This document shows, piece by piece, positions 39,001 through 57,000 of a stretch of 64,000 nt of DNA. Origin of the DNA: Escherichia coli (GTDB taxonomy: Bacteria; Pseudomonadota; Gammaproteobacteria; Enterobacterales; Enterobacteriaceae); NCBI RefSeq assembly GCF_045037415.1, contig NZ_CP173438.1; one strand, written 5' to 3'. Every line of letters starts with the position of its first letter. Position 1 is the stretch's first letter. A program made the position numbers.

Positions 39001-42000
39001 CTGCTGCTTTTTAAAATGGCGTTGAATGCGCCTCCGGCCCCGATAATCAGCAAAATATTAGCAATAGAACCGAAGCCATTTTCCGTATGTGTGAGCATTG
39101 TCCCCATGCTCATATGCTGGCGTATACCCAACACATAATAGGCGACAAACACGGCGATAAACATGGCAGTAATAGGGTTGCCAATAAACTCAAGCAAGGT
39201 ATAAAAACCACTCTCACGCGCCATATTCAATTCGGCAATCGTTTTAACCAACATCAGCGCAATGGGTAGCAGTATGGTGAATAACGTTGCGCCTAATGAC
39301 GGTAGTGTTTTTTCATCGCGAACTTTGAGATCGGCAAACTCTGTGGGTACAGGTTTAAAGGGCAGTCGTTGACCCAGAAATTTAAGGAAAAGTGGGCCAC
39401 CGATCAGTGATGCCATCAGCCCAACCAGCAAACCGTAGACGATCACCGAACCGATATCTGCGCCAAGCTTATTGGCAACATATAAAGCAGCCGGATGTGG
39501 GGGAACCACGCAGTGCACTGCCATCAATGCGGTACACAGCGGAATGGCCAGCTTTAACAATGAGGTATTGGTTTTTTTGGCAATTGAAAAAGCCAGAGGA
39601 ATCAATAGCACGACGCCCACTTCAACAAACAGCGTGATGCCGCAAATCAGGCCAACCAGCACCATAATGACATCAGCTGAAAGCCAGCGACAGCGTTGAA
39701 GTGTCAGACCAATTCTTTCTGCGGCCCCGGATACTTCCATCATTTTTCCCAGTATCGTGCCCAGGCCGATAACCGCAGCAAGGAACCCCAGCGTTCCGCC
39801 AATTCCACTTTCAATAGCATTTACCATATCCAGTGGTCCCATACCCATCATCGTTCCCACGAAGAAGCTGGCCAGCAACAGCGCCAGAAACGGGTGGAAT
39901 TTGAACTTCACGATGGTCAGTACAATTAACACGATGCTGATAAGCAGCGTGCTCACAACCCAGATTTGAGAGTGCATATCTCACCTTCCCCTGTGATTAA
40001 CCTGATGATATTGGACAAAAAAACAACGCAGGCTGACAAACGATAAAATTTGCCTTTCACATGAGCTAAATTGCATCAAGGGAGTGATTTACATCTAAAA
40101 ATGAAGGTGAATTGAGATATGGTTCACTTTAGCTCACCTTACAGCTGAAATTTTGCCGCTATTTTTTTACACTTAAGAGAAAAATGAGGTGATTATGGAA
40201 CCCCTTCGTGAAATAAGAAATCGACTGCTTAACGGCTGGCAACTATCAAAACTGCATACTTTTGAAGTGGCTGCCAGGCATCAGTCCTTCGCTCTCGCGG
40301 CAGAGGAATTGTCGCTGAGCCCCAGTGCGGTAAGTCACCGTATCAATCAGCTGGAAGAAGAATTAGGTATTCAGTTGTTTGTTCGTTCCCATCGCAAAGT
40401 GGAATTAACGCACGAGGGGAAACGCGTTTATTGGGCGCTAAAATCGTCGCTGGATACCCTGAACCAGGAAATTCTTGATATCAAAAATCAGGAATTATCG
40501 GGAACGTTAACGCTGTATTCCCGGCCCTCTATCGCCCAATGCTGGTTGGTGCCCGCATTAGGTGACTTTACACGCCGCTATCCGTCTATTTCGCTCACCG
40601 TGCTCACCGGTAATGACAATGTCAATTTGCAACGTGCCGGAATCGATTTGGCAATCTACTTTGATGACGCGCCGTCAGCGCAACTGACTCATCACTTTCT
40701 GATGGATGAAGAAATCCTGCCTGTATGTAGCCCGGAATACGCTCAAAGACATGCTTTAACCAACCAGGTAATTAACCTTCGCCACTGTACGTTGCTCCAT
40801 GACAGACAGGCCTGGAGCAACGACTCCGGTACGGATGAATGGCATAGTTGGGCGCAACATTATGCGGTTAATTTGCCGACATCTTCGGGAATTGGCTTTG
40901 ATCGTTCTGATTTAGCTGTTATCGCCGCGATGAATCATATTGGGGTGGCGATGGGAAGGAAACGCCTGGTACAAAAAAGACTTATCAGTGGTGAGCTCGT
41001 CGCGCCGTTTGGCGATATGACGGTGAAATGCCATCAGCATTATTACATCACCACATTACCGGGCAGGCAGTGGCCAAAAATTGAGGCATTTATTACCTGG
41101 CTAAGAGAGCAGGTATGTCAGTCTTGTCAGTATCAGTGATACCGGGGATACCGGGGATACCGACAATATGGAAGGGCTCATTGCCCTGAAAACAACATTG
41201 GTGTCGGATGTACCGGGCCGCAGACATTGCGCTCCGTCATTTGTGCGGCACAGCCCATCACAGTGATAAAGTTTCTCAGTATGTATCAGGGATCTACACG
41301 CAGCAGCTTAAGGAGGCCGGATTGCAAGCATCAACAGGGCGTACAGGCGACTCGTATGGCAGCGCGATGGCGGAGAGCATCAATGATCTTTACAAAGCGG
41401 AATACACCATAAGAGCTGGAAAAATCGTGCAGAAGTGGAACTGGCCACACTTACGTGGATGGACTGGTATAACAATCGACGTTTACTGGAAAGGCTGTGG
41501 CACATCCCTCCGGCTGAAGCAGAAAAAGCGTATTATGCTTCTATCGGAAATGATGAGCTGGCAGCCTGAGTTCACAGATAAAACACTCTCCAGGAAACAC
41601 GGGGCGGTTCAACTGACAGACATCACAAATCCCCGGGTGGGGATTTGTGTATAAGAGACAGAGCCTAGCTGGGGGCTGTGCACAAGAAAACGGCTCCCTG
41701 TTGTGGAAGCCGCTATAGTGCCGCAGTTTAAGGACCGGTCAACTGCTCCTTAACTGATCCGCATTGTGCGTGAAAGCAGACTTTTGGGGTCATTACATGT
41801 TTGAAAATACATTCATAATAATGCCGCCACTAATAATCAGCAACATGGAGAATATGGCAGGTAAATCGGGCTTTTGTTTATAAAGAATCATCGAGAAAAT
41901 TGTCACGCCAACAATCCCAAAGCCGCACCAGAGTGAATAGGCAACACCAACCGGAATAGTACTCATTGCTCTGGTCAGAGCGAAATAACACGTTGAATAA

Positions 42001-54000: not shown

Positions 54001-57000
54001 CGCACTGGCTATGAGAAAGTTGCGTCAAAGCGATGGGGCGCGCCTCGCTGATACCGAACAAATTGAAGGCTACCAACAGAATCGAAATGGTTAACAAACA
54101 GGCACCTGCAAAATACCAGTAAGCGTCGTGACGATGGGTGACTGGCGCTAATGTTGGTGGTGAAGACTCGGTATCCTCACTGGATGTTGGTACGTCAACA
54201 TCAGGGATTATGGATGGCTCTATAATTGCAGGTGGCGCAGGGGCTTCATCCAGTGGTTCGATGGATACATTCGGGTTTAGCTGCAGATAGCCGCGTGCAA
54301 CGGTAATGATAATATTATCAATACCATAGTGACGGAACGTCTTGCGCAGCATACTGAGATACTGATTCAGATTGCTGTTAGAAGAAGTTAATCCGTTGTT
54401 ATCCCAAACTTTTGTCAGTACCTCTTCGCGACTAACGATATCGGTATGATGCAAAAAAAAGTTGAGCAGCGCGCAGGACGTTATCGAGAGTTGGCAGTCT
54501 GGCTCAGTGCTTTGCGGTAGCGTAAGCGTGCCATCCGTAGCGTCATAAATGAAACGGGCATTGATGTTATAGCGCATCGCGACCTCAATCCATGGGACTT
54601 CACGCGGGAAGTGTCATCTTATTCAGTGAATCAACCAGTGCCTGACGATGTTCGGGGCTCATGGTGATCCCTTCCGTTAACTCAGACAACCAGATGCCAT
54701 CTGCGGTATAGCGCACCAGCGTTCCGGTTGGGCTATTATCCAGTTCATCGCCATTCGCTAAATGACCAAGCATCCAGTCTCGCCAGCATTTTCGCAGCAC
54801 CGGTTCATCGGGCATTGCCAGCGAAAGCACCATCAATTGACGGCTTTCTTGTGTGTCAGTCAGCGCAGAAAGATAGTTCACATATGCGCGAGTAAAACGG
54901 CCATAGCTTATATTGTCTTTTTGCATCAGGGCAGCGATGGCCTCTTCCATTATTGCCAACAACCGGGCAAACAAGGCGTAGATCAGCGCCTGCTTGTTCG
55001 GAAAGTGATGCAGTAATCCACCTTTACTCACGCCAGCTTCGCGGGCAACCGCATTCAGCGAGAGGGCAGCGATACCGTCACGACCAGCAATCATAGCTGC
55101 AGACTCCAGCAACTGCTGATACAGACGGATGGGATCTTTTTTACGATGTTGGGTTTCTGTATTCATAGGCAGAAGCATACCGACCAGACGGTATGTTTTT
55201 TTTTGATCGCTATCAAGGAGAAGCAGCTACCCATGAAGTGAGTATGGGTATTGCGTGTGAGGTCACAATTTGTCGTATAAATCCTACTGCTGCTGTTAAT
55301 TCTCCTGGTCTGCACAATGGTGGGAATCTGTTACCCTTTCGATGAACAGAAAATCCATAAAAAGATGATCAAATAACTTTTAATGACCTGAATGATGCTT
55401 TTTGAAATACAGAAGGCAAGCGAGAATGAACCGCCCCGGGGTTCCTAGAGAGTGTTTTATCTGTGAACTCAGGCTGCCAGCTCATCATTTCCGATAGAAG
55501 CATAATACGCTTTTTCTGCTTCTGCCGGAGGAGTATGCCTCAGCCTTCCCAGCAATCGTCGATTGTTATACCAGTCCACCCACGTGAGTGTGGCCAGTTC
55601 CACTTCTGCACGGTTTTTCCAGCTCTTACGGTGTATTACCTCCGCTTTGTAAAGACCATTGATGCTCTCCGCCATCGCGCTGCCATACGAGTCGCCTGTA
55701 CTCCCTGTTGATGCCAGCAGTTTTGCTTCTTTTAATCGCTCCGTATAGGCCAGTGACACATACTGAGAGCCTTTATCGCTGTGATGGATGGTGCCGGACG
55801 GACGACGGGCCCACAACGCCTGCTCCAGCGCATCCAGCACGAATGTCGTTTCCATGGACGATGATACCCGCCACCCCACGATGTATCCGGCAAACACATC
55901 AATGATGAACGCCACATAGACGAAGCCCTGCCATGTGCTGACGTAAGTAAAATCAGCCACCCACAGCTGGTCAGGACGTTCTGCCACGCACTGACGGTTT
56001 ACGCGGTCACCTGCGGCAACGGTTTTCCGGCTGACGGTAGTGCGGACCTTTTTACCCCGGAGAACACCGGAAAGTCCCATAACCGCCATGAGGCGCGCCA
56101 CTGTACATCTGGCCACCCTGATTCCTTCCCGTAACAACTGACGCCAGACTTTACGCACACCGTACACCTGATGATTTTCATCGTATACGCGCTGTATCTC
56201 TCTCTTCAGCCAGTCATCGCGCTGTGCATGTGCACTGCGTTTATCAGGATGATGTCGCTGTTGCTGACAGTGGTAATACGTTGACGGGGCAATATGCAGT
56301 TCACTGCATACCGGTCTGACCCCGTACTGCTCACGCAGCTTATCCAGCAGTGCCATCACTTTTTCCAGAGGCGGTCGAACTCCGCCTTCGCAAAATAAGC
56401 GGAAGCCTGGCGAAGGATATTGTTACTGCGGCGCAGTTCACGATTTTCACGTTCCAGCTCTTTCAGACGCTGACGTTCAGCGGTGGTAAGCCCACCATCA
56501 CCGCCTCCGGTATCCCGCTCATACTGGCGAACCCAGACACGCAGAGTCTCCGGCGTACAGCTAGTCTTTGGAGCAATGGAACAAATTGCCGCCCATTGTG
56601 AGTCATATTCGCCCTGACTTTCCAGAACCATACGAACTGCCCGTTGACGGACTTCGGGGGAAAAACGTGTTTTTTTAGTCATCCTGTTTACCTCTTTCTC
56701 AGGAAGTTTAGTCTCCAGGATTTCCGGGGCGGTTCAACTCCGTTGCCTCATCAGTTGTGGTCTACAGCAACATCCACCATTAAACCGCCAACACAGACTG
56801 TTCCGCGTTAAACGAGTGCGGCGGTACTTTCAGCCCGGAAACCTGGGGAGCGCGCTCGCAGGCATCAGTCTGTTATTTGTTGAAGGGGTTATTTCCTGCT
56901 CTTGTGAATGGAGTTACCGAGATAATGATTGGGTCGAAAGACTCGGCACGCCCTTTTTTTTATGTAAATTCCATAGGCTTAAGCGATGTAAAACGTTTAC

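Follow-up and report, generated by a model that had tools for sequence, protein, structure and literature searches.

IS629-family remnants around the Escherichia coli choline-utilization locus as probable substrates for inversion rather than ends of a transposon

Work on the choline-utilization (cut) locus, which produces trimethylamine from choline, concerns both host cardiometabolic effects and its use as a model microcompartment. In the window examined here, a 64,000-nucleotide stretch of E. coli contig NZ_CP173438.1, the locus lies between two inverted IS629-like sequences, and a sequence-only reading of this DNA had proposed that they form a composite-transposon-like arrangement able to mobilize or delete it. 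Do the two sequences form such a unit, or do they act on the locus in some other way? The evidence below makes it very probable that they are a recombination substrate at which a 13.8-kb cut segment flips relative to dsdCXA and malY–nhaC, and not a transposon.

The cut locus and its island setting

The dsd genes were placed using open reading frames and the RefSeq annotation of a 100%-identical stretch (E. coli 536, KC-Dl-1, and UTI89), the cut genes using open reading frames and annotation, and malY–nhaC using open reading frames. The spacer and linker were read from the sequence, and the hairpin came from a terminator scan.

37294-38622, minus strand: dsdA, island copy
38640-39977, minus strand: dsdX, island copy
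40195-41139, plus strand: dsdC, island copy
41140-41169: spacer between dsdC and the left IS remnant, a GATACCGGG-type tandem repeat of strain-variable copy number
41612-41792: 181-nt E. coli-specific linker between the left arm and the last cut gene, with no counterpart in other genera
~41641-41661, minus strand: IS50/IS4-like terminal-repeat scrap CTGTCTCTTATACACAAATCC inside the linker
41689-41714, minus strand: terminator-like hairpin in the linker, 3' of the last cut gene
41793-55178, minus strand: 16-gene cut locus, a type II (GRM2) choline-utilization microcompartment
45341-48727, minus strand: cutC
51848-52772, minus strand: three tandem BMC-H genes
53241-55178, minus strand: three cut regulators, FidL-like, winged-HTH (CadC-like), and TetR
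57042-59778, plus strand: malY/patB-like and nhaC genes, which accompany cut and the full IS in a pheV-island variant
60202-60304, minus strand: third IS629-like scrap, 103 nt from the IRL end with 95% identity to 56634-56734

In listed order, the cut genes are two SMR/DMT transporters, a hypothetical gene, a phosphotransacylase, BMC-H, cutD, and cutC, followed by an alcohol dehydrogenase, BMC-P, an aldehyde dehydrogenase, and the tandem BMC-H genes. The locus thus holds the components that define the type II (GRM2) class, namely cutC, cutD, a BMC-H/BMC-P shell, aldehyde and alcohol dehydrogenases, and a phosphotransacylase. Over 17.5 kb, the sequence matches 536, UTI89-type, and p11A genomes at 100.0% identity, and all 16 accessions of the 536 cut proteins are those of the experimentally studied Cut microcompartment (PMC10710832). 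Judged by this identity, the window locus is the known E. coli 536-type cut locus, which converts choline to trimethylamine. DanRI of PAI II UTI89 were considered as possible cut regulators and were found not to be.

The host is a leuX-type pathogenicity island, in which cut lies next to dsdCXA and which also bears cnf1 and hlyCABD. An NCBIfam search found CNF1, HlyA, and HlyB all encoded within the window, bearing out the toxin-island setting previously suggested for it; hly, cnf1, and P fimbriae are borne by this island type (bioRxiv 10.1101/2025.06.10.658900). The cut locus itself is indistinguishable from those of PAI II536 of 536 and PAI II of UTI89 at leuX. In the window, nhaC is uninterrupted and cnf1 lies upstream, whereas nhaC of 536 carries an IS100 insertion.

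The claimed adjacency of cut and dsdCXA also holds: 30-45 nt separate the end of dsdC at 41139 from the left IS remnant, with dsdX and dsdA farther out. Across the tandem-repeat spacer the same 1401-nt query spans 1397 to 1419 nt in different genomes, and the gap is unequal in 536 and UTI89. The second dsdCXA copy was reportedly the subject of work by Moritz and Welch in 2006. Further IS debris is present: the IS50/IS4-like scrap region gives partial matches to an "IS4 family transposase" region (H109 and H110), and the 103-nt IS629-like scrap, annotated "transposase, frameshifted," abuts an IS2-like pseudogene. Promoter and terminator scans gave nothing beyond shuffled expectation except the hairpin after the last cut gene.

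Two IS629-family arms of different type

~41170-41611, plus strand: left arm, D-type remnant of the IS629 family (IS3 family) (BLAST and repeat finder)
55427-56736, minus strand: right arm, F-type intact IS629 isoform, 1310 bp, with the IRL tip at 56736 and the IRR tip at 55427 toward cut (repeat finder, BLAST, and open reading frames)
56356-56682, minus strand: orfA of the right IS
55469-56359, minus strand: orfB of the right IS
56285-56401, minus strand: ALIL frameshift pseudoknot of the right IS

Both IS sequences described in the sequence-only reading were recovered, the truncated plus-strand copy ending at 41611 by repeat finder and BLAST, and the complete minus-strand copy at 55427-56736 with a length of exactly 1310 bp. 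What lies between them is indeed cut with its three regulator genes. The left arm, detected by BLAST from 41184 with weak similarity out to ~41170, keeps the IRR-proximal ~430-440 nt, lacks IRL and the transposase start, and is annotated by PGAP as an "integrase core domain" pseudogene. The right arm has intact orfA and orfB, its ALIL pseudoknot scores 117.6 bits, and PGAP labels it "IS3 family transposase, programmed frameshift."

The right copy matches IS629/IS1203 (IS3 family) in its 1310 bp, its TGAACCGCCCCGG...CCGGGGCGGTTCA termini, a 108-amino acid OrfA, a 296-amino acid OrfB, and ALIL. Against an O157:H7 IS629/IS1203 copy it is uniformly 95.4% identical without gaps; at ~95%, it is a borderline isoform. 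Length, inverted repeats, orfA/orfB with a –1 frameshift, and identity all fit, and on these sequence features we assign it to IS629. The left remnant (84%) falls below the ~95% identity expected of IS629 and is a more distant relative. Within the E. coli collection, this D-type remnant had no full-length counterpart, and no other IS copy matched it at more than ~89%.

The two arms are inverted, with both IRR tips toward the cut locus. Aligned over 433 positions, they share 84.3% identity, lower toward the 5' end (73%) and higher toward the 3' end (92%). Since the left arm is 84% identical to the right IS and 84-86% identical to other IS629-family copies, and the right IS is 95.4% identical to O157 IS629, the left arm is, as judged from these identities, a piece of a different element and not a copy of the right IS. 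The presumed likeness of the two copies therefore stands as far as family membership and inverted orientation go; at 84.3% identity, they are different elements.

The proposed check for a target-site duplication gave none around the full IS in either orientation: its flanks are AGT/TTC (in IS orientation) in the window arrangement and AGT/ACT when inverted, compared with the 3-bp duplication CAC of a typical IS629-family copy. On the left, the outer flank needed for such a test no longer exists.

Inversion of the cut segment among E. coli genomes

Junctions around the locus were compared in 5,426 complete E. coli genomes, 321 of which are cut-positive. An IS arm is found on the TetR-side flank in 320 genomes, against 321 with cut. 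The sequence-only reading would have been undermined by unrelated arms or by an IS-free cut allele at the same site; the arms are related, and no IS-free allele was found among the E. coli genomes, the left arm being absent only where IS1 has replaced it.

The window-type junction (dsdC–remnant–DMT) is kept in 214 of the 321 cut-positive genomes. In 74 genomes, the junction is malY–full IS–DMT, which only an inversion can create. The reciprocal view, a truncated copy beside the TetR flank, was obtained for 11 of 40 records in a 1-in-8 sample of 322 records, which scales to ~88 genomes. The cut segment is thus inverted in 74-88 of 321 genomes, roughly a quarter, with the caveat that genome counts are inflated by clonal series (~30 "Esc" genomes represent one strain). 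The flip can be seen directly in the annotated genomes Esc10, 675SK2, IPCEC48, EC45, AREA_487, O25b:H4, and CU37RT-2. The junction comparison confirmed that the arms drive rearrangement, the outcome being inversion and not the mobilization or deletion that had been envisaged.

Inverted and non-inverted forms can share the cut segment without a single SNP over 13.75 kb (the window, the non-inverted ST131-4993, and alleles B1 and B2), and flips are for that reason recent. An A/B2 pair, A being the non-inverted class, likewise has no mismatches across 6.9 kb of malY-side flank. No orientation polymorphism was seen within a clone, clonal series being uniform; flipping is therefore a rare event and not a rapid switch. 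ST131 had been considered as a within-clone case and was dropped; ST131-labelled genomes hold different island variants.

Switch points and inversion alleles

41341-41385, partner 55657-55701: 45-nt block, the longest identity common to both arms and the crossover interval in B1 and B2
55788-55798, inverted partner 37331-37341 in the dsdA 3' end: 11-nt microhomology ATGGTGCCGGA at the left joint of the inversion-plus-deletion allele B1

Arm mosaics were scored at 78 diagnostic sites as D or F type. Arms were pure D and pure F in all window-type genomes examined and chimeric in all inverted genomes examined, and the window arrangement is ancestral. For B1 and B2, the change between D and F falls within the 45-nt identity block; for B3, it lies just upstream. 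The inverted genomes comprise at least three alleles of distinct structure, and gene-conversion tracts were found as well; judged by junction structure, there were at least three independent events. B1 lacks dsdCXA, has a 4-kb deletion, and is joined to dsdA at the 11-nt microhomology, B2 retains dsdCXA and has a wholly F-type right IS, and B3 has another cut haplotype (17 SNPs) and another switch point. AREA_487 has an additional D-to-F conversion tract. Neither B1 nor B2 is a simple reciprocal product, an F segment being duplicated and a D-side segment lost in each, and a gene conversion or template-switch event must therefore be invoked.

Relocation and distribution in other genera

In 14 genomes, cut, the IS, and malY–nhaC lie in a pheV island with IS1 in place of the left arm. 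This block begins at 41653, behind IS1, and on the right continues past the IS into malY–nhaC–psiE'. It is the only relocation seen, and its boundaries differ from those of an IS-bounded unit. WB61 was considered as a possible empty site and is actually a decayed B2-type remnant in a pheV island. In Kluyvera, Klebsiella, Raoultella, Proteus, and others, only 41793-55283 is kept; neither IS629-family sequence near cut nor linker homology was found in other genera.

Alternative explanations

The arrangement might be a decayed composite, in which two IS629-family elements once brought cut from a donor and the left one was later truncated. The sequence shared with other genera ends 181 nt inward of the left arm and 143 nt inward of the right, no other genus has IS there, at least the TetR-side arm is kept in every E. 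coli cut locus examined, and the inward IRRs fit the geometry expected of an inverted-IS composite. On the other hand, the arms derive from different elements, nothing remains of the outer left end, and the right IS has no target-site duplication. The search for a recent donor gave, at best, loci of Kluyvera, Klebsiella, and Raoultella with only ~82% nucleotide and 92-93% CutC amino acid identity. Moreover, the linker next to the left arm holds an IS4-like scrap of a third element; this and the mismatched arms are better explained by successive, independent insertions in an IS graveyard than by a single composite, and we regard a former composite as unlikely.

It is also conceivable, if distinctly improbable, that the orientation polymorphism is functional, with selection on cut expression or replication–transcription conflict spreading independent flips in several lineages. 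In the window form, the IS629 transposase genes immediately precede tetR, the wHTH gene, fidL, and the cut operon and point the same way; the operon would run head-on to replication. In the inverted form, dsdC and promoter-less IS scrap occupy the upstream position, and the operon would be co-directional with replication.

A functional composite transposon, with both IS629-like copies together moving or excising cut, is very unlikely. Inverted IS629-family arms do bracket the locus exactly, an IS arm does abut the TetR flank throughout the 320 genomes, and the right copy has intact orfA/orfB with the ALIL frameshift element. Against this, the left arm lacks both the outer IRL end and a transposase, the 84%-identical arms are separate elements, and the full IS has no duplication in either orientation, all of which speaks against mobilization. 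Nor does the predicted loss of the locus follow, since homologous recombination at inverted repeats inverts the intervening DNA and cannot delete it, and inversion is what natural genomes show. No PLSDB plasmid carries the IS-bounded cut unit; apparent plasmid matches were misfiled chromosomes, one 8-kb fragment, or fosA3-linked regulator homologues. A unit with the same two IS ends at a second site was not found in E. coli genomes or PLSDB, the sole relocated form being bounded differently. Of the features of a composite, a seemingly intact transposase is present in the right copy only, and the same IS twice, both outer repeats, a target-site duplication, and independent contexts are all missing. 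From their sequences, the two IS form no transposon, the left being a dead remnant and the right an intact, predicted live IS629 isoform.

That the inverted arrangement is an assembly artefact is hardly credible: short-read assembly can go wrong at repeats of 0.4-1.3 kb, but all records are complete-genome assemblies, at least 74 from many laboratories concur, the chimeric arms have consistent switch points, and B1 has its unique microhomology joint to dsdA with a 4-kb deletion. Equally far-fetched is a programmed invertible switch (phase variation) for cut or neighbouring genes: both orientations are common across the population, but the segment and its immediate surroundings contain no gene for an invertase or recombinase, the arms are IS debris as opposed to short specific sites, alleles differ in crossover point and joint type, and clonal series are single-orientation.

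Discussion

The reading that best accounts for these observations is inversion at IS-derived arms. Independent IS629-family sequences would have come to bracket cut in a region of a leuX-type uropathogenic island that is littered with IS. Inverted arms sharing ~430 nt at 84% identity would then permit homologous recombination, probably of the RecA type, and exchange inside the arms would turn the 13.8-kb cut segment around and leave the arms chimeric. In one allele an illegitimate joint is involved as well, and a larger block (cut, the IS, and malY–nhaC) has moved into a pheV island. The flip probably alters cut expression little or not at all, because every crossover lies inside the IS arms and leaves the promoters and immediate flanks of the locus in place.

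Such IS-mediated plasticity around an already known locus is ordinary, and understanding of the choline pathway itself is unchanged by it. E. coli cut emerges as a fixed passenger of leuX/pheV-type pathogenicity islands and not as an autonomous transposon; its spread should therefore track island transfer and clonal expansion. The IS debris around it gives rise to recurrent, apparently neutral inversions, which bear in practice on assembly, on PCR typing over the dsdC and malY junctions, and on engineering of cut. They also provide a clean natural case in which recombination between 84%-identical repeats stays within a 45-nt identity block.

The likeness to Tn10 and Tn5, in which cargo lies between inverted IS with like ends inward, is only superficial, as the arms here differ, one outer end and one transposase are gone, and there is neither a duplication nor a second context. 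Inversions between inverted IS copies are known in E. coli, Shigella, and Yersinia genomes. With these, the present case shares inverted homologous arms, crossover inside them, chimeric products, and a segment that is flipped yet unchanged. It differs in that the arms are short (~430 nt) and only 84% identical, with exchange confined to one 45-nt block, and in that two of the three alleles are non-reciprocal, one adding an 11-nt microhomology joint and a 4-kb deletion.

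Anatomy of the cut locus and its flanking insertion sequences

ORF listing, repeat finding and BLAST confirmed that the choline-utilisation (cut) locus is bracketed by inverted IS629-like copies and adjoins dsdCXA, as had been proposed in the sequence-only reading.

Features around the cut locus
37294-41139: dsdA, dsdX and dsdC (ORF listing)
ending at 41611: short IS-like stretch, the left arm (ORF listing and repeat finding)
41793-55178, minus strand: sixteen cut-locus genes (ORF listing)
55427-56736, minus strand: IS of 1310 bp, the right arm (ORF listing and repeat finding)

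In a BLAST search of the window, the full IS matched the left arm (41184-41611, 84.3% identity), so the two arms are related, and also an IRL scrap of 101 nt at 60202-60302. In its full extent of 103 nt (60202-60304), this IS629-like scrap abuts an IS2-like pseudogene (60202-61036) just past malY-nhaC-psiE'; in some ST131-type islands (retrieved regions L010, L012 and L013) an EAST1 (astA) gene lies within IS debris nearby. Between dsdC and the IS remnant, a short tandem repeat of GATACCGGG type (41140-41169) varies in length among strains, the same query across it matching spans of 1397 to 1419 nt.

RefSeq annotation of the cut locus names cutC, cutD, BMC shell genes, aldehyde and alcohol dehydrogenases, a phosphotransacylase and two DMT/SMR transporters, together with FidL-like, winged-HTH and TetR regulators. 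Three tandem BMC-H genes (51848-52772) form direct repeats that are 79-84% identical with a period of ~297 nt. Only two are present in strain IPCEC48 (L010 29243-29817), where the cut segment is 299 nt shorter, consistent with shell-gene loss by unequal recombination.

Structure of the two IS arms

IS629 termini bound the right copy, which encodes a 108-aa OrfA and a 296-aa OrfB and contains an ALIL frameshift pseudoknot; its 95.4% identity to an IS629/IS1203 copy of O157:H7 is uniform and gap-free. The left arm comprises only the last ~430-440 nt, ending at the IRR tip; it shares 73% identity with the right arm in its 5' part and 92% in its 3' part, and is about equally far from two further family members. 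It is what is left of another IS3-family element, one that has diverged further. In the linker between this remnant and the last cut gene (41612-41766), a perfect hairpin encloses a terminal repeat of IS50/IS4 type (CTGTCTCTTATACACAAATCC, minus strand). The linker also has short stretches matching a region annotated "IS4 family transposase" that occurs elsewhere in E. coli, and is probably debris of a third element.

It had been suggested that the arms form a composite-transposon-like arrangement that could mobilise or delete the locus. The IRR tips of both arms face the cut locus, so the outer ends of any composite would be the two IRLs, of which the left is gone. No target-site duplication was found around the full IS, where a typical family copy has one of 3 bp. 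On arm geometry alone, the structure has no means of transposing as one piece. When inverted repeats recombine homologously, the DNA between them is flipped, not deleted.

Three arrangements of the cut locus in E. coli

The cut segment was present at ≥99% identity in 321 of 5,426 complete E. coli genomes, and arrangements were sorted with queries limited to cut-bearing records. The window order (class A), with its dsdC-remnant-DMT junction, is kept in 214 genomes. An inverted order (class B) is marked by a malY-full IS-DMT junction in 74 genomes, and the truncated copy lies beside the TetR flank in ~88, an estimate scaled up from a 1-in-8 sampling of 322 records, where 11 of 40 rows showed it. 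In 14 genomes (class C), IS1 abuts the locus at 41653. Seven annotated class B genomes (Esc10, 675SK2, IPCEC48, EC45, AREA_487, O25b:H4 and CU37RT-2) share the order malY-nhaC, full IS, DMT through cut to TetR, truncated IS, and finally either dsdC or a stump of dsdA, the 13.8-kb inter-arm segment being inverted relative to both flanks. The composite-transposon reading is only partly supported: the related arms do drive rearrangement, but its outcome is inversion rather than the mobilisation or deletion first proposed. An IS629-family IRR arm was found at the TetR flank in 320 cut-positive genomes, and no IS-free cut allele was found among the 321.

Chimeric arms and the direction of change

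The arms were typed at 78 sites that distinguish the left, D-type remnant from the intact, F-type copy. In all class A genomes examined (the window, 536, KC-Dl-1, UTI89 and ST131-4993) the arm on the DMT side is pure D and that on the TetR side pure F, whereas every class B genome examined has chimeric arms. Since the pure F copy is one IS629 isoform along its whole length and the D remnant is divergent throughout, the window arrangement is ancestral and the inverted forms are derived.

The inversion alleles represent at least three structurally distinct events. In B1 (O25b:H4, the Esc series, IPCEC48 and EC45), the full IS stays F-type as far as a 45-nt identity block (41341-41385 / 55657-55701) and is D-type past it, so that the transposase is frameshifted. 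At the other joint, the dsdA 3' end and the IS (55788-55798) meet in an 11-nt microhomology, ATGGTGCCGGA, and ~4 kb, dsdCXA included, has been lost. AREA_487 has the B1 joints but a longer F tract, a gene-conversion tract that restores the reading frame. In B2 (675SK2 and no fewer than 35 others), the sequence after dsdC is D-type as far as the same block and F-type past it, while the full IS is F-type throughout, making the outcome non-reciprocal. B3 (CU37RT-2 and O16:H6) has a different cut haplotype (17 SNPs), a switch point slightly upstream and a group II intron within its IS. In CU37RT-2 (L098 171-3643), this intron splits the IS629 isoform beside cut and encodes an LtrA reverse transcriptase/maturase.

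Across the 13.75-kb cut segment, no substitutions separate the window from class A genome ST131-4993 or from B1 and B2, and the malY-side flank of one A/B2 pair matches perfectly over 6.9 kb; the flips are recent relative to sequence divergence. Orientation is uniform within clonal series, so the inversion is a product of rare recombination and not a fast switch.

Relocation to the pheV island and loss

The 14 class C genomes (4.5-4.9 Mb) come from pig, dog, cattle, river water and humans. Their block, 41653-57034 and onward (cut, full IS, malY, nhaC, psiE'), has a pitB gene truncated by IS1 on one side and the pheV tRNA and integrase on the other, and represents shuffling of modules among tRNA-linked islands. 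An origin by transposition of the proposed composite was rejected: the block is larger, IS1 (within the linker bearing IS4-like debris) and not an IS629-family arm sets its left boundary, and ~14 SNPs distinguish its cut haplotype.

In WB61, a decayed B2-type junction lies in a pheV island without cut, so the locus can be lost, but via other IS events. There (L097 7065-9657), pduA and pduB fragments adjoin IS629-family debris and the decayed dsdC'-remnant-TetR-flank junction, a second microcompartment-gene remnant in a similar IS graveyard.

Relatives outside E. coli

A scan of one genome per species identified CutC relatives with 92-93% amino-acid identity in Kluyvera, Klebsiella, Raoultella and Enterobacter. 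Nucleotide homology to these genera (~82%) is confined to 41793-55283, the 16 genes including transporters and regulators; IS629-family sequence and both linkers (41612-41792 and 55284-55426) are absent from all of their loci compared. The IS arms therefore belong to the E. coli island and not to the cut locus, the donor of which lies outside the sampled genomes. A historical IS-assisted capture of the locus is unlikely and finds no support in the evidence: the two arms are different elements, IS4-like scrap separates the left one from the cut genes, and target-site duplication is lacking.

Homologues (~79% identity) of the FidL-like, winged-HTH and TetR regulators (53241-55178) lie beside fosA3 on hundreds of conjugative Enterobacteriaceae plasmids, in an IS26-bounded module (e.g. 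pEC_G4W1, L099 4032-5936). On Kluyvera chromosomes (L017, L018, L053 and L057), fosA lies between the cut shell genes and these three regulators, and the passenger ORFs of the fosA3 module accordingly look like regulators of a Kluyvera cut locus.

Comparison with the known locus and island

A second, island-borne copy of dsdCXA was reportedly described by Moritz and Welch in 2006, as cited in PMC7545054. Full-text literature searches found functional work on the 536 locus and no paper treating cutC, inversion and insertion sequences together; the inversion polymorphism appears to be undescribed. The cut locus and its island are already known. Over 17.5 kb, the window sequence is matched at 100% identity by E. 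coli p11A, KC-Dl-1, UTI89-type genomes and 536, and the protein accessions at the 536 locus are exactly those of that strain's experimentally characterised 16-gene cut locus (PMC10710832). The toxin-island setting was also confirmed: genes for CNF1, HlyA and HlyB lie upstream in the window, an arrangement shared with PAI II of UTI89 at leuX (bioRxiv 10.1101/2025.06.10.658900). The cut inversion is an ordinary kind of IS-mediated plasticity, in a known locus of a known island.
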